From sequence record MT446412.1: a stretch of 64,000 bases of DNA. One strand, written 5' to 3'. The stretch is from Escherichia virus TH41. The stretch's first letter is position 1. Each line of letters opens with the position of its first letter. Below are positions 3,392-55,939 of the stretch, piece after piece. The translations under genes were made by a program, and so were the position numbers. Under the pieces are notes generated by a model. That model worked only from the letters and a program-made list of their open reading frames with translations, did not search any database and had not been told where the DNA came from.

Positions 3392-4210
3392 TTAAGAAAT
3401 TCGTGATGCTGCGAGAGCAGACAAGTCCGCGAAGGACAGGGTAGGCTTGGCGCCTTTTTCTTCAACTGCTTCTGAAATGTAATTCAGTGCCGCAGCATCG
3501 TCTACATTTTTATTTATAGCGGCTTCGGTGATTGGTTTGTTGGTGGGTTCTACCTGACCTTTAACCATTTCAACGATAGCGCCAATTTTGGTACCGAATG
3601 CATCAGAGTATTCCATGCCTTCTACCAGAGAACCAACTTTTTCTTTTTGGGATTCAGTCAGGTCTTTAGTTGCTTCAGTCAACGCAACTTCACGTTGGAC
3701 ATAATTGATATAAGCATCACGCTTAGAAACTTCTTCGAACAGGCTAGCGGTTTCTTCTTTCTGTTCAGCCAGTTCTTCCTGCATTTCTGCGACAACATCG
3801 ACAGATTCTTCCGGAACAACAACGTTGTGCTCAACGAACAGTTCTTTCATGCCGGTGAACATGGATTCGAACAGGTCAGCTTTAATGCCACGGTCGACAG
3901 CCAGTTTATTTTCAGCAAGCCATTCTTTAGCAACGTGGTCCAGGAATTTAGCTGCAGATTCTTTCAGTTTTTTCTCTGCTTTTTCGTCGGATTCTTCTTT
4001 ATTCTTTTCGACTTCTTCTTCAGCTTTTTCAGCGATGGCGTGAATGTGAGATTCTGCCAGTTTGATGGCGTGTTGCTTGACGGTAGCTTCGAATACAGTG
4101 CCGAAGGTAGCTTTCGCTTCCGGGGACAAATTAACTGATTCGAAAATACTATCGAGAGCAACGGAAGCATCGATATTCTGAGCTTCAGAAATGAGTTGTT
4201 CTTTAAGCAT
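3392..4210 (-). CDS. 22: Prohead core scaffold protein gp22
   Basis: 272-aa acidic, Glu/Lys-rich ORF; N-terminus MLKEQLISEAQNIDASVALDSIFESVN resembles T4 gp22; synteny. Confidence 0.85.
   Translation of the reverse strand: MLKEQLISEAQNIDASVALDSIFESVNLSPEAKATFGTVFEATVKQHAIKLAESHIHAIAEKAEEEVEKNKEESDEKAEKKLKESAAKFLDHVAKEWLAENKLAVDRGIKADLFESMFTGMKELFVEHNVVVPEESVDVVAEMQEELAEQKEETASLFEEVSKRDAYINYVQREVALTEATKDLTESQKEKVGSLVEGMEYSDAFGTKIGAIVEMVKGQVEPTNKPITEAAINKNVDDAAALNYISEAVEEKGAKPTLSFADLSALAASRIS
3511..3518 (-). promoter_or_regulatory. Late promoter box TATAAATA upstream of gene 23 (inside 3' end of gene 22)
   Basis: Exact TATAAATA on minus strand about 140 bp upstream of the gene 23 ATG. Confidence 0.4.
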
Positions 4211-4239: not shown

Positions 4240-4247
4240 TATTTATA
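4240..4247 (-). promoter_or_regulatory. Late promoter box TATAAATA upstream of gene 22
   Basis: Exact TATAAATA on minus strand 30 bp upstream of the gene 22 ATG. Confidence 0.5.
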
Positions 4248-4881
4248 ACGTCTTTAAAGCCTCTGCGAGAGCCATAAAGGCGTCATCGGCACTGGTATCG
4301 GCAACAGCCGTTTGTGATTCTGTAATCTGCTTTGGTTTGACCCAAGCGTCCGGAGCACTTGGCCCCCATACTGCGTCTACTCCAACCGTCAATTTAAAAC
4401 CTTCATTAACGATGCTATAACCTTTTGCTGATTTAGTCAGGGAACCGAGTCCACGACTAGATACGCCAGGAATCCAACCTGCTCTTATATTCGCAGCAAG
4501 TTTATCACCTGGACCATGGTCGCCTTCGATAATACGCGCGCGGCCATATACATCATTCCCTTTCCACCACATTTCCTCGATAATAATTGCTGCCTGCATA
4601 GGGTCAACGTTTGCGCGAGGTGGATGGTTTAATTCTCCAAGAGACTGCTTGGTTTCAACCTGTTCGGCGATATAGTCCGCAACGGCTTTTTCCAAAATAT
4701 GTTTAGGATAAAGTCGTTTATTACGGTTAACAACTTCAGCTTGTAGGAAAATACCTTCAATATAAAGTCCTGGCTTTAAACCGCTGCTGGAACCATCATG
4801 AGATTCCAACATCGGTACACCATCTTTAATTTCGCCCGGTTGACCCCAGTGTTCGATTAGTAACTCTGGTTTCTGTTCCAT
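4243..4881 (-). CDS. 21: Prohead protease gp21
   Basis: 212-aa ORF, same length as T4 gp21 as recalled; synteny between 68 and 22; 1-nt overlap with gene 68 stop. Confidence 0.85.
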   Translation of the reverse strand: MEQKPELLIEHWGQPGEIKDGVPMLESHDGSSSGLKPGLYIEGIFLQAEVVNRNKRLYPKHILEKAVADYIAEQVETKQSLGELNHPPRANVDPMQAAIIIEEMWWKGNDVYGRARIIEGDHGPGDKLAANIRAGWIPGVSSRGLGSLTKSAKGYSIVNEGFKLTVGVDAVWGPSAPDAWVKPKQITESQTAVADTSADDAFMALAEALKTL

Positions 4882-5560: not shown

Positions 5561-7134
5561 TAGAAATCCTCTTCTTCTTCTTCAGGGTTTTGGAAACGAG
5601 CCTCTTTGGACTCCAATTCAATTTGCTTAGCTTCTTGATTAATTTCTTCATCAGACATCTGGAGGAAATCCTTCATCGCCGTTTGATGCGAAATATATTT
5701 ACCGATAAACGGTTCAGCCATCGTTAGCATATTGATTCTGCGTTCCATGATTTCTGCATCTTTCATTTCGGTGAAATAGCTATCACGGTTGAACGTAACT
5801 TTAATATTATTTAGTTCCTTTTCCCATTCCTCTTCTGAAATAATTTTTTTCAGGATAAGGTTGGTTTTAAGCGGGTCGAGGAAAACTTCTTCAAATTTAT
5901 TCTGTAGCTGTCGAATCCATTTAGAGAAATTCAATTCATCGCGAGTAATTGTCGCGCCCGCATCAAACATAACGCCACTGTTTTGGTCATTAGGGATACG
6001 AGATAATGGAATTCGGAGAGCCTGATATAGGTTGTTCTTAAACCAGCGAACATCGTCCATATCCGACATGCCTTGTGCACCCGGGAGTGTATCAACTTCG
6101 GTGACTGCTTTACCATCACGACGTTGCAACCAATAGTCTTCTGTCATTGACATGTTGTGCTGTTGGTTTTTGATTTTACCCGTAGTTGCATCATATACGA
6201 CACGGTTTTTCATCGTGTTCATAATATGTTGCATGTGTGCTGCTGCTTTACGAGACGGCATATTCCCGGTATCGATATAAAAGACTCGGCGGTCTGGGGC
6301 ACGAGTTATACGATAAATGACTAAAGCATCTTCTAATAGTTTTAATTGGTTTGCAGGTTTAATTGCTCGTTGCAAGTATCCGATGATATTCTTGCCACAG
6401 CAATCAAGTAATCCAGAATGCGCATATACAATCGCCGCACGAGGAATTTTTATTTTAGTACCTGCTTCATATATACGACCATCGGCACAATAACTTTCAT
6501 GACCAGTATCGTATACAAAATATTCTCTGTAACCGTCGACAATTTTTGTACCGTTTTCCATGCGTGTAACGATTTCACGGATGAACTGGATTTGTCTTGG
6601 GTCAAGGCGACGAAGTTCTTGAACACCATCTTTAAGTTTTGATGGGTTGATAATTTTGTGGAAGAAAATTCGAGAATCCACATACCAACGTTTAAAATGG
6701 TCAGAACCTTTACGCTCGAAATTAAGGAGGTTATTGACTTCCAAAAATTCTTCGAGGATTCGGTCTTTAATTTTCTGACTAAATTCGGTAGCATCAAGGT
6801 TAAGAGCTACAACATCTTTACCGTCTTCAAAAACGATAGCATCAGACACAATTTCTTGCACTGCGTTATCAACTTCATAATTATTTAGTAAGTTGCGGTA
6901 GGTGTCAATTAATTCCCTGGTATTTTTTACTTCAGGTTCATTGCTCCCGAACATCTGTTGCATCAATGCATTATACGGGACGTTTTGTTCTTGTGACTCA
7001 ATTTCACGAGCCCCATCATCAAACTTCGGCCCGGTCATTGACTCTAAATTATTTTTTTCTTGTTGCTTATATTCTTGTTCATCTTCTTTAGCCCAAGGCT
7101 TAAGAAAATTTAGTATTGTGTTAAAACCTGCCAT
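5560..7134 (-). CDS. 20: Portal vertex protein gp20
   Basis: 524-aa ORF, same length as T4 gp20 as recalled; synteny. Confidence 0.9.
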
Positions 7135-32143: not shown

Positions 32144-32743
32144 ATGTCAGGTTTATATAATCAAACTAACACGACTAACTTTATATTAGAGGTGAGCGAT
32201 TCAAACCTCACACAGACCTTTAAACTCAACGTTCAAGACGTTACCCTCCCAGGAGTTCACATTCCTGTGACGGATGTTCCTGGCGGAACACAAGGTATAA
32301 ATCGCTCCAGTCTTCCTGGTAGTACAATAGAATTCGACCCGCTGATTGTTAACTTTCTGTGTGACAAAGACCTAAGAGCGTGGCTTGACATCTATAAATG
32401 GATGCTCTCGCTCAACAACTACATCACACACGAATCAAAAGCATGGCATCCGAAGGGTCGTCCCGAAGCGGTCACGCTTCATATCTTAGATAATAACAAG
32501 GACAAAATTGTCATGTCAATCCATTACTATGGTGCATGGCCGTCCGACCTGTCAGAGATTCAGTATTCATATAAAGAAGATTCTGACCCGGCTATCAATG
32601 CAACAGCAACTTTTAACTTTAAGTCTTTTGCTGTAGAAATTGATGGTATAATAATAGAAGGTAGACCACAGATTGATAGTAATGCAGCAATGCAACAGGA
32701 AATCAGGTCTAAGTCAATGCATCCATCTATGAGAAACGTATGA
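32144..32743 (+). CDS. 3: Tail completion / sheath stabilizer protein gp3 (by synteny)
   Basis: ORF between 2 and 1; start placed at ATG MSGLYNQ.. with AAGGTG SD. Confidence 0.6.
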   Translation: MSGLYNQTNTTNFILEVSDSNLTQTFKLNVQDVTLPGVHIPVTDVPGGTQGINRSSLPGSTIEFDPLIVNFLCDKDLRAWLDIYKWMLSLNNYITHESKAWHPKGRPEAVTLHILDNNKDKIVMSIHYYGAWPSDLSEIQYSYKEDSDPAINATATFNFKSFAVEIDGIIIEGRPQIDSNAAMQQEIRSKSMHPSMRNV

Positions 32744-33416
32744 AATTAATTGCGATTGTGGGTAAAAAACGCAGTGGTAAAGATACGACTGCTGATTATG
32801 TTATTAGTCAAAATGGAACAAAGTGGCAGCTTGCAGGTCCGATTAAAGAAGCGCTTTATAACGCGTGGATTCGTCAAGACCTGCCACACAATTTGACCCT
32901 GGAAAATTTTGATGGACAAGGTTACGACCGTGAAAAAACCTTAATAATGAACAACACCGAAGCTTATATTCTTCTGGTTGATGCTCTTGAATGGTTGAAA
33001 CAACAATACAATCTTGACCTTCCGAATCCGGATATGGTTCGTAAAATTATTGAATTTCACACACTAAATAATGTTGAGCCCTGGACAGTTAGACGTTTCA
33101 TGCAGACCCTTGGAACTGACATTGTTTGTACAGAGTTCGACAGCATGTTTTGGATTAAAACTTTTGCCTGCGACTATCTTGACAACCTCTATTCTGGATA
33201 TAAATATTACGTTGTCCCAGATGTTCGCCAAAAGAACGAACTTGATTCGCTTCGGGCGATGGGTGCTACAATAATCTTTGTAGAACGCGATGAAGCAAAT
33301 CATTCTACTGATACACACATTACGGAAGCTGGACTTCCACCACTAGCTAGTGACATTGTTATTAAAAACGATGGCACACTCGAAGAACTTTTTGATAAAA
33401 TTAATAAGGTAATATA

Positions 33417-33417
<1 letters not shown>
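32740..33417 (+). CDS. 1: Deoxynucleoside monophosphate kinase gp1
   Basis: P-loop IAIVGKKRSGKDT at N-terminus; synteny. Confidence 0.85.
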
Positions 33418-34107
<690 letters not shown>

Positions 34108-34108
<1 letters not shown>

Positions 34109-34138
34109 TGTACAAATGAGTGTAGGTGCAGTATTATG
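34108..34138 (+). promoter_or_regulatory. Early promoter / stem-loop cassette
   Basis: GTGTAC -35-like, TATTAT -10-like, inverted repeat gtgtagg...cctacac flanking the -10. Confidence 0.4.
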
Positions 34139-34168
34139 CTCCTACACCAACGAACAAACGGAGTTAAA

Positions 34169-34501
34169 ATGAACATCAAAACTTATAACGAGTTTTTAGC
34201 CGAATCCGCCATCAATGAGACCAAATCAATTGATGATAGTGAAGGCTCTCTGAAATTTGGTTTAACCAAAAACGCAGATGGTGTTTTCTTTCAGATTGGT
34301 AATGAACGTTTTCAAACGTCCAAATATTCCAAAGCTGCAGTTGAAGCTGTCCTAAAATCTGGTGGCAAGTGGAAAGGCAAAGAAGGTACTAAAGAAATTG
34401 GTATCGCTGTTGACGGTGGTATGGCTTATTTTAAAATTGGCGATGAACAATTTATTATGTCTGCTCGCGGACGTAAAGAACTGGCAAAACTTTATAAATA
34501 A
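34169..34501 (+). CDS. Internal-protein-like protein with capsid-targeting-sequence N-terminus
   Basis: Starts MNIKTYNEFLAES, matching T4 internal protein capsid targeting sequence with L-x-E cleavage motif; GGAG SD. Confidence 0.6.
   Translation: MNIKTYNEFLAESAINETKSIDDSEGSLKFGLTKNADGVFFQIGNERFQTSKYSKAAVEAVLKSGGKWKGKEGTKEIGIAVDGGMAYFKIGDEQFIMSARGRKELAKLYK
34493..34500 (+). promoter_or_regulatory. Late promoter box TATAAATA upstream of ip-like gene 34510
   Basis: Exact TATAAATA on plus strand overlapping the stop of the upstream gene. Confidence 0.45.
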
Positions 34502-34509
34502 GGTTTCTT

Positions 34510-34782
34510 ATGAAAACTTTCAATGAATTTTTCAACGAGTCACAACTGAATGAAGAAGTAAAAATTAGTAAAGCAGTCAAATCTATGATTGACAATATCA
34601 ATCACCTGTATAGCATTGACTTGACTGACCATATAACAATTGGTAACAAACGCAACTTTTTCGCGTTTGACATTTCAGAACTTGACCAGAACCAAATTAA
34701 TAACATTGAGCGTTTTGCCAATGACAAGGGTCTCCGTCATGAGACAGCTGGTTATAAAAAATATGCAATTTATCTAAAATAG
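34510..34782 (+). CDS. Internal-protein-like protein with CTS N-terminus
   Basis: Starts MKTFNEFFNES; late promoter box immediately upstream. Confidence 0.6.
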   Translation: MKTFNEFFNESQLNEEVKISKAVKSMIDNINHLYSIDLTDHITIGNKRNFFAFDISELDQNQINNIERFANDKGLRHETAGYKKYAIYLK

Positions 34783-34790
34783 GATTTCAA

Positions 34791-35090
34791 ATGCAAACTT
34801 TTCATGAATTTTTGGTAGAAAACAATTACCTGGCAGAAGCAAAAACCTGGCCTCTGGGTCTTCAGAAGAAAAACACCTACAAATGGGTTGACTTCAAAGG
34901 TAAAGGCGACGCTGAAGACTTTGACCAGCTGCGTAAAAATGGTTATACCTTCCTTGACTCTAACTATAACAAAATTACCTCTTTTAGTCAGAAGTCAAGC
35001 ATTGCCTTCATTGAAACTGGTAAGAACTCTCCTAAAGATATCACTGACGACTTCACCGCTTATGGTGTAATTCGTGGTTCAAAAATGTAA
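34791..35090 (+). CDS. Internal-protein-like protein with CTS N-terminus
   Basis: Starts MQTFHEFLVEN; paralogous to 48952-49215 (shared ...AEDF...RKNGY...IAF...DDI...F..YG.I.G.K). Confidence 0.6.
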   Translation: MQTFHEFLVENNYLAEAKTWPLGLQKKNTYKWVDFKGKGDAEDFDQLRKNGYTFLDSNYNKITSFSQKSSIAFIETGKNSPKDITDDFTAYGVIRGSKM

Positions 35091-35119
35091 TGTACACGAT
35101 GGGATAGTTGCAGTATAAT
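35091..35119 (+). promoter_or_regulatory. Early promoter / stem-loop cassette
   Basis: TGTACA -35-like, 17-bp spacer, TATAAT; gggat...atccc inverted repeat flanking -10; conserved leader atcccatcaactactggag. Confidence 0.45.
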
Positions 35120-35145
35120 TATCCCATCAACTACTGGAGCTACTA

Positions 35146-35424
35146 ATGAAAACTTATCAAGAATTTATTAACGAATCAATTAGTCACCCGGATATGCTGG
35201 AAGACCTGAAAGGACATCTGATGGTTAAGGCCAAACCGGTTGATGGTGGCGCATTTGAGTTGTTTCTTGTTAAAGGCGAAAACGGTCCTGATAACAAGAA
35301 AGTTTCAGCAATGATGTTGACTAAAGGTTACAAAGTCAGTTCTTCCTGGAATGCTCCATTCACTTACGCGGTAAGCCCTCGTGAACTGAAAAAAGTTAAA
35401 GCTGGACAATATACAAAAATTTAG
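35146..35424 (+). CDS. Internal-protein-like protein with CTS N-terminus
   Basis: Starts MKTYQEFINES. Confidence 0.65.
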   Translation: MKTYQEFINESISHPDMLEDLKGHLMVKAKPVDGGAFELFLVKGENGPDNKKVSAMMLTKGYKVSSSWNAPFTYAVSPRELKKVKAGQYTKI

Positions 35425-35478
35425 TGTACGTGATGGGATAACTGTAGTATGATTATCTCATCAACTACTGGAGACCAC

Positions 35479-35733
35479 ATGAAAACTTATCAAGAATTTA
35501 TTACTGAATCTGCAAATGCAAAAGTTGAGTTTGCTTATGTTGGTTCGCCGCGTGGCAGTTTTTCCAATGAGGAATTCCGTCGTTCACTGGACAATTTCAT
35601 GCAGTTAAGTGCTGAAGTATCGCATGATGGTCGTTATGACATCGTTACTATTAGCGGTTCTGAAGACCTTATCAAAAAGTGGCACAAGCAGAAAGATGTT
35701 GAGATGCGTTACTATCGTATCCCTAAAAAATAA
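35479..35733 (+). CDS. Internal-protein-like protein with CTS N-terminus
   Basis: Start placed at internal ATG giving MKTYQEFITES; promoter cassette upstream. Confidence 0.65.
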   Translation: MKTYQEFITESANAKVEFAYVGSPRGSFSNEEFRRSLDNFMQLSAEVSHDGRYDIVTISGSEDLIKKWHKQKDVEMRYYRIPKK

Positions 35734-35790
35734 GTGTACTTTTAAATGGGATAGTGTATGATTATCCCATCAACTACTGAGGAGAATAAA

Positions 35791-35976
35791 ATGAAACGTT
35801 GCGAATTAATTAGAAATGTTACTGCCCTTGTTGCTGTTACCACTTTTGGTTTTAGCATGTTTGCTGGCTTTATGTTGAATATGCTTTCAACTTCTGAGAA
35901 TATAATCTCTTTAGTAGTTGCATTTTTAATTGGTTCAATCTCTTTCGTTATGGATAAAATCTCTAAAGGTGAGTAA
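35791..35976 (+). CDS. Small hydrophobic (likely membrane) protein, 61 aa
   Basis: Two hydrophobic segments; GAGGAG SD; promoter cassette upstream. Confidence 0.5.
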   Translation: MKRCELIRNVTALVAVTTFGFSMFAGFMLNMLSTSENIISLVVAFLIGSISFVMDKISKGE

Positions 35977-35977
35977 A

Positions 35978-36367
35978 ATGTATAAAGTGTATGCGGATTA
36001 TCAGGCAAATCCATCTGAAAAACCAGATTGTCAAATTGGGTGGGCGCATGACACCCTGCTTGAAGCGGTAGACGAAGCTCAAAAATTAGGGTATAGTTAT
36101 GTAGATATTGTTCAACCAAATGGAACAGTTATTACACTTGAAGAATTCAAGAATATCAAAACAAACTTTTTGCTTTTTGCAGGTGATAGCTATTATCCTC
36201 GTGGCGGTTATGCTGACTTAATCGCAAAGGCTGCGACTGAAGATGAACTGCGTGATATCATTAAAGAAAACGAGAAGAAGCCTTGTTATGGTTCCAACCG
36301 TTTTGACTGGTGGCAGATTGTTAATGCCAATACGCATACTATTGTTGATGAAGGAACATGCGAATGA
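35978..36367 (+). CDS. Hypothetical protein (129 aa)
   Basis: ATG immediately after upstream stop; no recognisable motif. Confidence 0.5.
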   Translation: MYKVYADYQANPSEKPDCQIGWAHDTLLEAVDEAQKLGYSYVDIVQPNGTVITLEEFKNIKTNFLLFAGDSYYPRGGYADLIAKAATEDELRDIIKENEKKPCYGSNRFDWWQIVNANTHTIVDEGTCE

Positions 36368-37236: not shown

Positions 37237-37312
37237 GGCCCTGTAGCTCAATTGGTTAGAGCATCCGGCTCATAACTGGCAGGTTTCCGGTTCAAGTCCG
37301 GATGGGGCCACC
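37237..37312 (+). tRNA. tRNA with CAT anticodon (Met or Ile2-type)
   Basis: Hand-folded cloverleaf: 7-bp acceptor stem (two G-U pairs), D-arm GCTC/GAGC, anticodon loop CTCATAA, T-loop TTCAAGT, discriminator A. Confidence 0.75.
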
Positions 37313-37389
37313 CGGGGTGTAGCTCAATTGTATAGAGCAACGGTCTTCTAAACCGTAGGTTGTGGGTTAGAATCCCACCACCCCGACCA
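37313..37389 (+). tRNA. tRNA-Arg (anticodon TCT)
   Basis: Hand-folded cloverleaf: perfect 7-bp acceptor stem, anticodon stem ACGGT/ACCGT with loop CTTCTAA, T-arm GTGGG-TTAGAAT-CCCAC, encoded CCA. Confidence 0.85.
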
Positions 37390-37404: not shown

Positions 37405-37644
37405 ATGGTTATTAGTGAATCATATGCAGTTATGGATATAACCAGCAACGAGCTGGTTTATAGCTTTGATGAGTTTGACGAAAATGATAAACAAGTCCCA
37501 TGGTTTGCATTAACTGCTCCACCTGAACATAATAAATATCTAAGTTTCCCGACTCGCAGACTAGCAACAAATTTTATGGAATTCAATGACCTTGATTCCA
37601 ATTATAAGGTTGTTAAAGTCAAATTAGCTATTACAATTGAATGA
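37405..37644 (+). CDS. Hypothetical protein (79 aa) just downstream of the tRNAs
   Basis: ATG after GAGGA SD at the 3' end of tRNA-Arg; acidic protein. Confidence 0.45.
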   Translation: MVISESYAVMDITSNELVYSFDEFDENDKQVPWFALTAPPEHNKYLSFPTRRLATNFMEFNDLDSNYKVVKVKLAITIE

Positions 37645-37649
37645 GAAGC

Positions 37650-37830
37650 CGGGTCGCTACCGGTAAGTCGTCGGGGCCTGTTCCCTGGGGTATTGTTCCT
37701 CCCACAGTTTTCTGTGTTCTGGTTCTTTACTATCACATCAGGCACGGCGCACCCTTTTACGGAGTTTTTCCAGAGCGGGCGGTGCGCCCGGTAGTATGAG
37801 AAATCCGAGCGGATGGTGCATCCGGTACTA
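37650..37830 (+). ncRNA. Candidate structured small RNA downstream of the tRNA pair
   Basis: About 180 bp with no plausible ORF, locally GC-rich, with stems GGCGCACC/GGTGCGCC (37746-37788) and CGGATG-gtg-CATCCG (37810-37824); resembles the placement of stable RNA species next to T4 tRNA genes. Confidence 0.3.
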
Positions 37831-37835
37831 TGGAA

Positions 37836-37843
37836 TATAAATA
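37836..37843 (+). promoter_or_regulatory. Late promoter box TATAAATA upstream of ORF 37875
   Basis: Exact TATAAATA on plus strand 32 bp upstream of the ATG. Confidence 0.45.
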
Positions 37844-37874
37844 TTAACAACAACCCTAATAATGGAAAAACAAA

Positions 37875-38258
37875 ATGCTTACATATGCAGAATTTTTAAA
37901 TCGCAATACCATCACCGAATCCGTACTGACTGAAGCTGGCAAATTTTCTTTAGTGGCTCCAGAAAAAGCCGGCGTTTCAATTGGTGACCGTGTTATGTTC
38001 AAGAAACCAGTTAATGGCGTTTCTTGGGGTATCGTAACTGGGTTTGGTATCAAAGCTAAAGATGTTAAAAACGCCGCCGCGCCAGGTGCTAAACTAGCCG
38101 GTTCCAAAGTTTCAACTTATATGGTTCGTCCTAAACAGTCTCCAGGTAATGGTGCCGCTGACTGGGTTGGTGCTCCAATCGAAATCGCTCGTGATAAATT
38201 CTTGAACATCACTGACCGTGCCAACGAACGCGCTGCAATGGCATTCGCTCGCGGATAA
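37875..38258 (+). CDS. Candidate internal protein with divergent CTS-like N-terminus
   Basis: Starts MLTYAEFLNRNTITES (..TY.EF.. plus I-T-E cleavage-type motif); late promoter box upstream; terminator downstream. Confidence 0.45.
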   Translation: MLTYAEFLNRNTITESVLTEAGKFSLVAPEKAGVSIGDRVMFKKPVNGVSWGIVTGFGIKAKDVKNAAAPGAKLAGSKVSTYMVRPKQSPGNGAADWVGAPIEIARDKFLNITDRANERAAMAFARG

Positions 38259-47614: not shown

Positions 47615-48103
47615 ATGAATATATTCGAAATGTTACGCATAGATGAAGGTTGTAAGTTGGATTTGTATAAAGATACAGAAGGCTTTTGGACCATCGGTAT
47701 CGGGCAACTGATAACTAAGAACCCATCGAAAGATGTAGCTCGCGCTGAGCTCGACAAGCTTATGGGTCGTGTTTGTAATGGTCGCATAACCCAGCACGAA
47801 GCTGAAACATTGTTTAATCGTTCGGTCGAAAAAGCTAAAGCCGGAATCTTGAGACACCCTGTCTTAAAACCTGTTTATGATGTACTGGATGAAGTTCGTC
47901 GTTGTGCGCTCATTAATATGGTATTCCAGATGGGTGTTGCTGGTGTTGCTGGTTTTCCTAAGGGTATGCGATTGTTGAAGGCTAAATCATGGGAAGCCGC
48001 CGCTAAGGAACTGGCCGACTCGAGATGGTATAAAGTCCAGACTCCGAACCGGGCTAAACGAGTTATCGAAACTTTCCGCACCGGAACTTTTGACGCATAT
48101 TAG
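47615..48103 (+). CDS. e: Endolysin (T4 lysozyme e homologue)
   Basis: 162 aa; [12 protein letters not shown]...DTEG..TIGIG...[12 protein letters not shown]...[17 protein letters not shown] closely matches T4 lysozyme. Confidence 0.95.
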
Positions 48104-48158: not shown

Positions 48159-48575
48159 ATGACTCGCATTAATTTAACTCTGGTATCTGAACTTGCTGAC
48201 CAACATCTTATGGCTGAATATCGTGAGCTTCCTCGCGTGTTTGGTGCAGTTCGCAAACATATACAAAATGGTAAAAAGGTTTCTGACTTTAAAATTCCAT
48301 CATCTTTTCTTTTAGGAACTGGTCATGTCACCTTCTTTTATGATAAACTTTTGTTCCTTAAAAACCGTCATCAAGAACTTATTGCGGAATGTTTAAAGCG
48401 AGGGTTTAACATAAAAGATATTTCTACCCAAGATTTAAATGATATTCCTGATGAATGGAAGAATGATTATCAACCATCAATCTGGTCAATTGAAATCAGT
48501 CAAGCCAGACTGAATGAGAAAATTTCTCAAAAGCCTACCTGGTACAAATACTATGGGAAAGCTGTGTACGCTTAA
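48159..48575 (+). CDS. denV: Endonuclease V (pyrimidine dimer DNA glycosylase)
   Basis: 138 aa; N-terminus [31 protein letters not shown] matches T4 endo V. Confidence 0.9.
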
Positions 48576-48623: not shown

Positions 48624-48938
48624 ATGAAAACTTATCAAGAATTTATTACTGAATCTACCCAAAAACGTGTTGAAGGCGGTTATGTCTGGATTGAACAGTT
48701 AACCCCACCAAGTGAAACAAGCACAGGTTCATGGAAAATTACTGTTGATGGTCCTGGCGGCAAACGCAAGACTATTAAAGAAATTAAAGGCTATTATGAT
48801 GAAGCTAAATCATGGGCGGGTAGTCATGTAATGCAGATTAAAATTGCAAATCCGGATAACGTTCATGCAGCAAAAGCATTCCGTCGTATTGGTAATAAAC
48901 TTTATGATGCGTTTTTGCGCGATTTCCCTAAAGCTTAA
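48624..48938 (+). CDS. Internal-protein-like protein with CTS N-terminus
   Basis: Start placed at internal ATG giving MKTYQEFITES. Confidence 0.65.
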   Translation: MKTYQEFITESTQKRVEGGYVWIEQLTPPSETSTGSWKITVDGPGGKRKTIKEIKGYYDEAKSWAGSHVMQIKIANPDNVHAAKAFRRIGNKLYDAFLRDFPKA

Positions 48939-48951
48939 TTAAAGAGACATT

Positions 48952-49215
48952 ATGAAAACGTATCAAGAATTTATTACTGAATCTGCCAAAGCTCCTGCTG
49001 GTTCCTTTAAAGTCCGCGCCTTCGCTGGCGATGCTGAAGACTTTGGCACCATGAAGCGCAATGGTTATTCTTTCTTTGGTGGCGATGGTAAAGAAATTGT
49101 CACATATGCAAAACGTCGCGAAATCGCATTCGTGGTTGCTGGTAAGAAAGTTGATGCTGACGATATTGAATGGGACTTTGAGACCTTTGGTATTGTTTCT
49201 GGCGGTAAAGCATAA
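48952..49215 (+). CDS. Internal-protein-like protein with CTS N-terminus
   Basis: Starts MKTYQEFITES; paralogue of 34791-35090. Confidence 0.65.
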   Translation: MKTYQEFITESAKAPAGSFKVRAFAGDAEDFGTMKRNGYSFFGGDGKEIVTYAKRREIAFVVAGKKVDADDIEWDFETFGIVSGGKA

Positions 49216-49217
49216 CT

Positions 49218-49246
49218 GTTTACTTTATGATGGGATAGTGTATAAT
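49218..49246 (+). promoter_or_regulatory. Early promoter / stem-loop cassette
   Basis: GTTTAC, 17-bp spacer, TATAAT; gggatag...tatccca inverted repeat; conserved leader. Confidence 0.45.
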
Positions 49247-49274
49247 TATCCCATCAACTACTGAGGAGAATAAA

Positions 49275-49472
49275 ATGTTAACTTATAAAGAATTTATGAA
49301 AGAAGTTAAAAAACTTAAAAAGACTTCTGGCGATGTTAAAATTGAAATCCATGGTCAAAACGTAAATGTGGTAGCGGATGGCCAGGCATTAGTTCTTTAT
49401 AGTGATAAAGACCAAGAATTTCGTGAAGCACAAAAGAAAAAATTTACCGTATGGCTTAAAAAAGCTGTTTAA
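49275..49472 (+). CDS. Internal-protein-like protein with divergent CTS
   Basis: Starts MLTYKEFMKEV; 65 aa. Confidence 0.5.
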   Translation: MLTYKEFMKEVKKLKKTSGDVKIEIHGQNVNVVADGQALVLYSDKDQEFREAQKKKFTVWLKKAV

Positions 49473-49480
49473 GGACCAAT

Positions 49481-49780
49481 ATGAAAACGTATCAAGAATT
49501 TATCACAGAAGCCAAAGCTCCTAAAGCATTTCAAATCGGAGTCCAGGGCAATTTAGACCAACAATATGTTGATGCTATTGTCGCAAGCCTCGGTAAACAA
49601 GGTGTACAAGTGGATTTGGTTGATTTTACTAAAGGTAATACTTTTAATATTGTCGCATCTAAAGGTTCTTTAGCTAAAGTTAAAAAGGCCTTTGGCGTAG
49701 CACAAGCATATGAAATTGACCATTCTGAATTAGAAAATAAAGGTCGCCAGAACACAATTAAAGGCTCTGGTTCTTTTTAA
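49481..49780 (+). CDS. Internal-protein-like protein with CTS N-terminus
   Basis: Starts MKTYQEFITEA. Confidence 0.65.
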   Translation: MKTYQEFITEAKAPKAFQIGVQGNLDQQYVDAIVASLGKQGVQVDLVDFTKGNTFNIVASKGSLAKVKKAFGVAQAYEIDHSELENKGRQNTIKGSGSF

Positions 49781-49941
49781 TAAAGGCAAACCGACCCTCT
49801 CCTCATGAACTTCGTGTCCTCTGAGTGATGGACCTTTCCCTACCTGTAATAAGGTCGAGCCCGAGTGCGGTAAGGGGTTTACATTCGGATACATGGACGA
49901 ATTAATGTGCCAAGGAATGGCCCCACAACTAAGAGACAACT

Positions 49942-50469
49942 ATGAAATTTTTAACTCCCATTTATCTAACTTTAATGCACGCCTTCGCTGAACGCGCCAT
50001 TGAACGCTTAGATTCAGACCAATACACCTGGTATGAACCCGCTTCAAGAATGCAAGAGTTTGGTACCCTTAGACTTGACGGTGGAAGACAAACAGGTAAA
50101 ACAAGTGCCATTGCGCAGTTCGCGGCGGATTGGGTTTCTAAAGGTAATGATGTGATTGTTATGTCGAGTTCTTCGCATCGCTCACGAGAAATCTGTAATA
50201 TAATAAAGCGGGTGTCTAAGGCACAACCACATCTTAATGTTGAACGACCTGGATTCGTTGTCTATGATACTGTACGCAGTTTCCTTGATGAAGATAATTT
50301 TCATAAGTACCGTGGATTGCGTTTTACGCGTCTTTTAATCATTATTGAAGAACCTATTCGCCTCCCTGCAATGGATAAGTTCTATGAAGCTTATCAGGTA
50401 ATGATGAATAAATTTATGTGTCAAGGTGATAAGCCTTTGCCACTGTTCTTTGTGATAGGAATGCAATGA
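49942..50469 (+). CDS. Small P-loop NTPase-like protein (175 aa)
   Basis: Walker A GGRQTGKTS and Walker B-like LLIIIEEP. Confidence 0.5.
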   Translation: MKFLTPIYLTLMHAFAERAIERLDSDQYTWYEPASRMQEFGTLRLDGGRQTGKTSAIAQFAADWVSKGNDVIVMSSSSHRSREICNIIKRVSKAQPHLNVERPGFVVYDTVRSFLDEDNFHKYRGLRFTRLLIIIEEPIRLPAMDKFYEAYQVMMNKFMCQGDKPLPLFFVIGMQ

Positions 50470-55668: not shown

Positions 55669-55678
55669 CATTTAGGGG

Positions 55679-55720
55679 TTTACATCACCATAAAAAGGGT
55701 GTACTATTATCCCATCAACT
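55679..55720 (+). promoter_or_regulatory. Early promoter cassette
   Basis: GTTTAC and GTGTAC elements followed by tattatcccatcaactactgaggag leader. Confidence 0.4.
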
Positions 55721-55735
55721 ACTGAGGAGAACACA

Positions 55736-55939
55736 ATGAGAATTAAAAATATCAAGATTGATGCAGTTAATACTGGTGATGAGGTTGTTATCTATCTTAA
55801 TGATTATGCAATCTTTATGGACAGTGCCACTGATGAAGAAGTGGTTGAACTCTTACAGAAAGCTCCATTTGAACTGTGTGAAGAAGATGCTACCCATCTT
55901 TCATCAGCAATTTTCTCATTATCATATGTGGTGGAATAA
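55736..55939 (+). CDS. Hypothetical protein (67 aa)
   Basis: GAGGAG SD. Confidence 0.45.
   Translation: MRIKNIKIDAVNTGDEVVIYLNDYAIFMDSATDEEVVELLQKAPFELCEEDATHLSSAIFSLSYVVE

Follow-up and report, generated by a model that had tools for sequence, protein, structure and literature searches.

We analysed a stretch of 64,000 nucleotides from Escherichia virus TH41 (sequence record MT446412.1, hereafter the window), in which five consecutive small genes (A1 to A5, Table 1) encode proteins headed by the capsid-targeting sequence (CTS) of the T4 internal proteins. These genes very probably represent the contents of a hyperplastic ipI locus of a Gaprivervirus, encoding internal proteins that would be injected with the phage DNA. 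An earlier reading made from the sequence alone had described an expanded, diversified set of injected effectors; the CTS genes, their diverse bodies, the T4-type core and protease module and the position at ipI bear this description out, but the set is not a new one, since it is the classical ipI locus and members of it are already named in GenBank. The array is thus an ordinary example of textbook T-even biology, with two hyperplastic ip loci, non-homologous internal proteins that share a CTS, promoter/stem-loop cassettes and an anti-restriction role, and it was already deposited and partly annotated. The region shares 99.1% identity with Escherichia phage UPEC01, and matches to it were found in 623 phage records; judged by its sequence the source phage is a Gaprivervirus (VR7, VR20, SP18), a T-even coliphage of the subfamily Tevenvirinae.

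All five plus-strand open reading frames (ORFs) were found with the N-termini that the sequence-only reading had quoted for them. The span it had given for the array, 34108–35733, is right at its end but not at its start, as 34108 is the last base of 57B and the array proper runs from 34169. Shine-Dalgarno sequences are present for the array genes, and homologues of their proteins occur in 17–245 phage records. Where VR20 differs from the window, the difference lies at a third codon position in 12 of 13 cases in A1, 8 of 11 in A2 and 22 of 28 in A3, and these genes are therefore under purifying selection. The protein bodies that follow the CTS are mutually unrelated, as had been claimed: the best BLASTP E value among the five is 1.7, and a profile of the A1 family compared by hhalign with the other eight CTS-protein bodies of the window (those of a second cluster, described below, included) gave no match. 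Searches of all proteins against Pfam and NCBIfam returned no family for any internal protein.

The motif [KQ]T[YF]xEF[ILFVM]xE occurs eight times in a six-frame translation of the 64-kb window, in every case on the plus strand and directly after the ATG that heads an ORF, compared to no occurrence in 200 residue-shuffled controls. At the DNA level the sequences coding for the five N-termini form a five-copy direct repeat of 32 nt, with 69–94% identity between copies. In an alignment of T4 IPI, IPII and IPIII with all nine CTS proteins of the window (12 sequences), Thr3, Glu6 and Phe7 do not vary, only T4 IPI lacks Glu10 (which the other 11 share), and Met1 is also common to the window proteins. 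The sequence-only reading had given MKTYQEFIAE as the start of all three T4 proteins, which is correct for IPII and IPIII but not for IPI, which begins MKTFKEFTSTTTPVSTITE/A (a slash marks the expected cut). A review of Black's work (PMC9026906) states that IPIII needs no more than its first ten residues to be packaged, that CTS residues 4 and 7 weigh most in targeting, and that residues 8 and 10 have a part in processing.

All five array proteins carry a CTS of the MKTYQEFIAE type, in which position 4 is aromatic and position 7 is Phe. In four of them position 8 is moreover Leu or Ile and position 10 is Glu, so that they display the (L/I)-x-E motif of the gp21 prohead protease at the expected place, as LAE in A1, LVE in A3, INE in A4 and ITE in A5. 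The CTSs of A4 (MKTYQEFINE/S) and A5 (MKTYQEFITE/S) are canonical and that of A3 is MQTFHEFLVE/N. The CTS of A1, MNIKTYNEFLAE/S, is shifted by two additional N-terminal residues, since in Gaprivervirus an ATC has replaced the ancestral ATG; A1 homologues elsewhere begin MKTYxEFLTES. The most divergent is A2 (MKTFNEFFNE), which has a non-canonical FNE at positions 8–10 and a canonical LNE at residues 13–15. A second site, 5–6 residues downstream of the first, is present in A1 (INE, ending at residue 17) and A3 (LAE, residue 16) as well as in A2 (residue 15), an arrangement that by analogy recalls the 19-residue propeptide of IPI.

The position of the array and the genes encoded elsewhere in the window agree with this assignment. 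The order 1-57A-57B-[ip]-trna.4-trna.3 is common to the window and T4, which carries a single ipI between 57B and trna.4, which identifies the array as the ipI locus; of the two variable ip sites (57B to trna.4, and near e and denV) it occupies the first. Here trna.3 lies beside trna.4 as a further downstream flank. The head module is encoded on the minus strand of the window (gp20 portal, gp21, gp22, gp23, gp24 and gp68), and includes both the gp21 protease, found where the sequence-only reading had placed it, and the gp22 scaffolding core, which is the partner of CTS-bearing proteins (PMC5694885, PMC9026906).

In T4 the internal proteins join the gp22 core via the CTS, which gp21 then removes after the Glu, and the head retains about 1000 internal-protein molecules until they leave together with the DNA; the GmrSD enzyme of E. 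coli CT596 is blocked by processed IPI (IPI*) (PMC5694885, PMC9026906, PMC3012670). Silas et al. (2025) reported two further GmrSD variants to be blocked by Ip2 and Ip3, without cross-protection, such that Ip1-3 each act on a distinct GmrSD type IV enzyme, and proposed that the accessory proteins of both Ip loci all target variants of the GmrSD family (PMC12373910). From the homology of signal, locus and machinery, most of the five proteins described here are probably packaged, trimmed and injected in the same way. The CTS of each, some ten residues long, would bind the gp22 core during prohead assembly; gp21 would cut after the Glu of (L/I)-x-E, releasing the body inside the head; and the freed bodies would stay with the packaged DNA and exit with it at infection. 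Once in the host cell they would most likely counter strain-specific defences acting on incoming phage DNA, with one target per protein. We consider an action against host defences reasonably likely for the five proteins, and targets of the GmrSD type, which are less secure here than in T4, doubtful.

Table 1. Features of the window discussed in the text, with the positions of drifted CTS genes in relatives
Feature	Position	Strand	Remarks
A1	34169-34501	+	110 aa, N-terminus MNIKTYNEFLAES
A2	34510-34782	+	90 aa, N-terminus MKTFNEFFNES
A3	34791-35090	+	99 aa, N-terminus MQTFHEFLVEN
A4	35146-35424	+	92 aa, N-terminus MKTYQEFINES
A5	35479-35733	+	84 aa, N-terminus MKTYQEFITES
B1	48624-48938	+	
B2	48952-49215	+	A3 paralogue
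B3	49275-49472	+	MLTYKEFMKE, atypical CTS, no [LI]xE
B4	49481-49780	+	
gp21 prohead protease, removes CTS	4243-4881	-	Pfam Peptidase_S77 8.1e-102; PHROG 207
gp22 scaffolding core protein	3392-4210	-	PHROG 237 5.8e-91
gene 1, dNMP kinase	32740-33417		
57A	33417-33653		
57B / Acb1, phosphodiesterase against the cyclic-oligonucleotide-based antiphage signalling system (CBASS), upstream boundary of ipI locus	33653-34108	+	Pfam Acb1 1.5e-59; T4 57B position
trna.4 homologue, small membrane protein, downstream flank	35791-35976	+	PHROG 1692 2.4e-33; VR20 annotation; T4 synteny
Early-promoter/stem-loop cassette upstream of A1	34108-34165	+	GTGTAC-17-TATTAT; stem 34117-34149 spans -10; GGAG Shine-Dalgarno
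Early-promoter/stem-loop cassette upstream of A4	35091-35139	+	TGTACA-17-TATAAT; perfect stem GATGGGATA/TATCCCATC at 35098-35128
Early-promoter/stem-loop cassette upstream of A5	35425-35473	+	85% identical to A4 cassette
Early-promoter/stem-loop cassette upstream of trna.4, downstream array boundary	35734-35790	+	same architecture upstream of T4 trna.4
TATAAATA box	34493-34500	+	A1 codons Leu-Tyr-Lys-stop; ends 9 nt before A2 ATG
TATAAATA box within gene 1, some 210 nt before 57A	33199-33206	+	counterpart box at equivalent place in T4 gene 1
VR20/VR25/VR26 genes with drifted CTS	excerpt positions 5858-6130 (Ip9), 6139-6438 (A3 homologue)		

A second cluster of four CTS genes (B1 to B4; 48624–49780, plus strand), missed by the sequence-only reading, follows e (47615–48103) and denV (48159–48575) and corresponds to the ipII/ipIII locus of T4. 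A3 and B2 are paralogues situated in different ip loci (38% identity, BLASTP E value 5e-15), and the B4 family adjoins 57B in other phages; cassettes therefore move between the loci. A1 and B1, which both match PHROG 3966, were also considered as paralogues and rejected, as hhalign finds nothing between their bodies; it is probably the CTS that unites the members of this PHROG. UPEC01 lacks a segment of approximately 620 nt (49216–49839) that comprises a promoter/stem-loop cassette, B3 and B4, and the flanks of this segment are 91–96% identical, making it a clean cassette insertion/deletion.

Gene content at the ipI site varies in a similar manner, with VR20 carrying A1-A2-A3-A4-Ip6, VR25 lacking A4, VR26 having a different third gene and ECML-359 another set. 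Among 28 IMG/VR loci anchored on 57B together with the annotated GenBank relatives, there are mostly 0–3 CTS genes beside 57B, and arrays of 4–5 were found in Gaprivervirus only. A4 of the window is identical at every nucleotide to that of VR20 (excerpt 6494–6772), compared to 4–9% divergence in the adjacent A1–A3, which suggests recent exchange of that one cassette. We propose that the array was built of such cassettes, in which the promoter/stem-loop elements and the 30 nt coding for the CTS would supply homology for recombination, leading close relatives to carry different gene sets.

The promoter/stem-loop cassette is repeated upstream of A1, A4, A5 and trna.4. A promoter scan, an alignment of six copies and folding energies define its design as G(T/G)TAC-N17-TAT(A/G/T)AT, with an inverted repeat that holds the -10 hexamer in its loop and, after the stem-loop, a conserved leader TATCCCATCAACTACTGGAG ending in a Shine-Dalgarno sequence. 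Folding energies of the stems range from -12.6 to -17.3 kcal/mol (-16.5 kcal/mol, z -2.1 for the A1 cassette; -17.3 kcal/mol, z -3.3 for that of A4), and the A1 cassette has a stem sequence of its own within the design of the other copies. A2 and A3 each lie 8 nt behind the preceding gene without their own promoter. The same design is found in T4 upstream of ipI, trna.4, ipIII and ipII, and similar elements at the two ip loci were seen by Repoila et al. according to the account of Arbiol et al. (PMC2839356; also PMC4122927). Further copies of the promoter, stem-loop and leader (…TATCCCATCAACTACTGAGGAG…) occur in the window at 49214–49274, upstream of B3, and at 55673–55735, upstream of a 67-aa ORF (55736–55939); the element is therefore not restricted to ip loci.

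The sequence-only reading had also pointed to an exact late box, TATAAATA, upstream of one array gene as a sign of expression at the time of prohead assembly. The box at 34493–34500 exists, but is poor evidence of late expression because it is A1 coding sequence and such boxes are near chance frequency on the plus strand: the window holds 12 on the minus strand, the strand of the late structural genes, and five on the plus strand, with about five expected on both strands together. T4 late transcription starts about 6 nt past the late box, and a start at that distance here would cost A2 its AAGG Shine-Dalgarno sequence, leaving the gene with no ribosome-binding site. The box is moreover kept only within the genus, as coding sequence, and we judged it a weak late promoter. 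A better candidate is the box inside gene 1, from which transcripts could read into the array.

Three of the five proteins show homology to a named internal protein, these being A2 (Ip9), A5 (Ip6 family) and A3 (PHROG 2667). A2 is the orthologue of Ip9, being 79% identical to Ip9 of RB15 and matching PHROG 7673 'internal head protein' at 2.5e-56, with 172 phage records. Its body (residues 19–90) also has homologues without a CTS, 49–53% identical, in the siphoviruses Kagunavirus JSSK01 and Seuratvirus KS_A3, where the genes sit among small accessory genes (excerpt positions 2507–2725 and 2492–2716); the label 'internal head protein' given to the KS_A3 protein presumably derives from similarity alone. 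A3 matches PHROG 2667 'internal head protein' (1.3e-21; 192 records), and its relatives include proteins of Salmonella phages S16/STML-198 (75% identity) and ORF125c of RB69 (33%). A5, which matches PHROG 8111 'internal virion protein' at 1.4e-13, represents a divergent Ip6-family allele; it is 40–46% identical to Ip6 of T6, RB18 and VR20 and occupies the same last slot of the array.

A1 belongs to PHROG 3966, which has no known function, and is found in 55 phage records, at 48–63% identity, from Gaprivervirus and from T4-like phages of Edwardsiella, Citrobacter, Serratia, Pectobacterium and Salmonella. Its homologue is labelled ipI in Edwardsiella phages; otherwise, among the records listed, neither A1 nor A4 has an Ip name. 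The body of A1 is an internal duplication, with related halves (BLASTP 3e-5). Structure prediction, which the sequence-only reading had proposed as a check on the bodies, returned for A1 an AlphaFold model with a pLDDT (predicted local distance difference test) of 76.7, rising to about 82–89 over residues 31–100, in which four strands and a helix occur twice. These two beta-beta-beta-beta-alpha repeats in a single domain match the pattern of a Whirly/PUR-like fold, which is thus predicted for A1; a sequence search of the PDB with A1 gave no match. For A2 the prediction was uninformative, yielding a generic alpha/beta sandwich with no informative structural match.

A4 has an orphan body restricted to Gaprivervirus, with 17 phage records that are all at least 97.8% identical and a single cluster among 5.8e9 proteins. 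An exhaustive HMMER search with this body against 1.84e9 representatives found only itself as a credible match. The A4 body also gave 25-residue matches in long proteins made of MBG or other repeats, which were judged spurious.

Several observations weigh against reading the array as a set of injected anti-defence proteins. The five proteins fall into different PHROGs from Ip1-3 and have no sequence resemblance to them: we found neither homology nor fold similarity to the GmrSD inhibitors IPI*, Ip2 and Ip3, and BLASTP of A1 against IPI recovers the CTS plus one short insignificant stretch and nothing else. No reproducible interaction was reported for ip4-10 with the GmrSD variants active on T-even phages (15 groups synthesised; PMC12373910 supplement). 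No virion proteome of a Gaprivervirus was found in the literature searched. A tblastn search (E<1) with T4 gp42, alpha-gt and beta-gt against the window and UPEC01 1–127,000, which together cover the whole genome, returned no homologue. At the level of the signal, the first A2 site has Phe at P3 where Leu or Ile is expected, the CTS of Ip9/A2 in VR20, VR25 and VR26 has Leu at position 7 (MKTFNELFNES), and that of the A3 homologue in VR20 has Leu at position 4 (MQTLHEFLVEN). Finally, the visible promoters of the array are of the early type, hence synthesis at prohead time must be assumed from read-through or continued expression. The Leu substitutions in VR20, VR25 and VR26 sit at the two CTS positions reported as weightiest for targeting.

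An alternative is that the proteins are packaged but mainly structural, small basic proteins that neutralise DNA charge and help the DNA to be packaged or ejected, without acting on any particular component of the host. The freed bodies would be of 8.6–10.7 kDa, and four of the five are basic (isoelectric point, pI, 9.0–9.6), as are seven of the nine bodies over both loci if a pI of at least 9 is taken as the limit. In T4, internal-protein lysines make contacts with DNA phosphates, and head assembly is defective in IPIII mutants (PMC3012670, PMC9026906), while the fold modelled for A1 is typical of single-stranded nucleic-acid binders. However, A2 (pI 6.8) and B2 (pI 6.2) are not basic, and a structural role would leave unexplained the unrelated bodies, the fast turnover of cassettes between near-identical phages and the strict one-inhibitor-one-enzyme specificity of Ip1-3 (PMC12373910). 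We therefore regard this explanation as unlikely for the array as a whole, while a charge-neutralising role is possible for some members.

It is also conceivable that some members, such as A2, or A3 in relatives, are no longer packaged and act as early cytoplasmic accessory proteins, the CTS being kept as a site for cassette recombination. This would suit the early-type promoters upstream of A1, A4 and A5, the FNE site of A2 and the Leu residues at CTS positions 4 or 7 in relatives, as well as the repeated CTS-coding DNA and the Ip9 body that works without a CTS in Kagunavirus and Seuratvirus. Yet in the A1, A2 and A3 families the CTS is kept at the protein level across genera, the substitutions are conservative hydrophobics, and A2 retains its canonical LNE ending at residue 15, while T4 ipI-III have the same early-type promoters and their products are packaged nonetheless (PMC9026906). 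This second alternative is accordingly the less probable of the two, and we give it little weight. That the N-terminal likeness is due to chance, or that the ORFs are not genes, might be entertained from their small size and the lack of a Pfam or NCBIfam match, but is already refuted by the eight motif matches after ATG against none in shuffled controls, the third-codon bias, the recurrence of homologues and the Shine-Dalgarno sequences.

If the five proteins are injected inhibitors of host defence, as we prefer, their targets may differ from those known in T4. The canonical slots for hydroxymethylcytosine (hmC) glucosylation genes are empty in VR7 (14,000–42,000 examined), and the same lack has been described for the genus, in which an unknown modification is suspected (PMC8056088). 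On gene content the phage does not rank among those with glucosyl-hmC DNA, the substrate of classical GmrSD, and since no homologue of gp42, alpha-gt or beta-gt was found this substrate may be absent. Even so, the annotation includes a dCTPase, endonucleases II and IV, and Alc. UPEC01 encodes at 37643–38146, between imm and uvsX and roughly in the place of T4 42/b-gt, a 167-aa protein with no Pfam match.

The largest internal-protein arrays seen (five plus four genes in this phage) thus occur in a genus without a recognisable dCMP hydroxymethylase or glucosyltransferase, which suggests that some of the targets may be other than GmrSD. We tentatively propose, as a possibility rather than an expectation, that some of the proteins injected here may act on defences beyond the glucosyl-hmC-specific GmrSD enzymes, that A1 may be a Whirly/PUR-like nucleic-acid binder which shields or mimics DNA or RNA rather than plugging one particular enzyme, and that the CTS-less Ip9 body may be a portable anti-defence module. 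If this were true, T-even phages would have converted the Ip9 module from 'expressed early' to 'pre-delivered'.

Compared to T4 Ip1-3, the array proteins are alike in their N-terminal CTS (MKTYQEFIAE in IPII and IPIII, MKTYQEFI[NT]E in A4 and A5, with variants in A1–A3), a gp21 site ending in Glu, their small size, the use of the same two genome positions, the early promoter/stem-loop upstream and their non-homologous bodies. They differ in the lack of homology between any of their bodies and Ip1, Ip2 or Ip3, in the presence of five genes where T4 has one at the ipI site, and in belonging to a genus without detectable hmC-glucosylation genes. Polymorphism of the T-even ip loci, from Ip4 onward, is credited to Repoila et al. 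1994 where that work is cited (PMC3012670, PMC2839356, PMC12373910), and more than 30 Ip variants are known according to the citation of Comeau 2007 in PMC2839356. The array is that same locus, with cassettes varying in number and identity between close relatives, and is unusual in its 4–5 genes, a size confined to Gaprivervirus in the sample given above.

The cassettes resemble the promoter(early)/stem-loop elements (PeSLs), mobile regulatory cassettes of T4-type phages (PMC2839356, PMC4122927), in pairing a -35 with a -10 that a stem-loop spans and in being repeated between variable small genes, the PST/T4 consensus being TTTACW-N17-TAYWAT (Comeau et al., PMC4122927), although the elements associated with T-even internal proteins are analogues rather than homologues of the PeSLs of RB49 (PMC2839356). 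The giant phages phiKZ and SPN3US likewise have head-internal proteins that are cut after Glu by a gp21-related protease and ejected into the host (PMC5694885), but with an A/S-x-E motif, long propeptides, much larger proteins and no cassette array.

As a class, internal proteins are effectors against host defence that are made in advance and enter the cell along with the DNA, with targets known for T4 Ip1-3 only. The window establishes no new principle, and what it adds is small: the recognition of A1 and A4 as CTS proteins, the fold prediction for A1, the CTS-less relatives of Ip9, and the occurrence of the richest arrays in a genus without recognisable hmC-glucosylation genes. It does bring together nine candidate injected effectors, among them the orphan A4, A1 with its predicted nucleic-acid-binding fold and the Ip9 body that also circulates without a CTS. 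This compact panel would be useful for target-finding screens like those that solved Ip2 and Ip3. GenBank annotation could also be improved, as three to four of the five genes are 'hypothetical' in most annotated records.

A known anti-defence gene, the cyclic-nucleotide phosphodiesterase Acb1 (T4 57B), directly adjoins the array on its upstream side. On the downstream side, the UPEC01 annotation places a minus-strand coding sequence over trna.4 (window about 35742–36014; UPEC01 excerpt 3843–4115), which looks like an annotation error because the plus-strand ORF at this position matches PHROG 1692. A 175-aa protein without a CTS (window 49942–50469) is labelled 'IpIII' in UPEC01. Two adjacent tRNA genes lie downstream of the array at 37237–37386, as in VR20 (tRNA-Met and tRNA-Arg), compared to eight in T4; an Rfam scan of the window returned these two tRNAs and nothing else.

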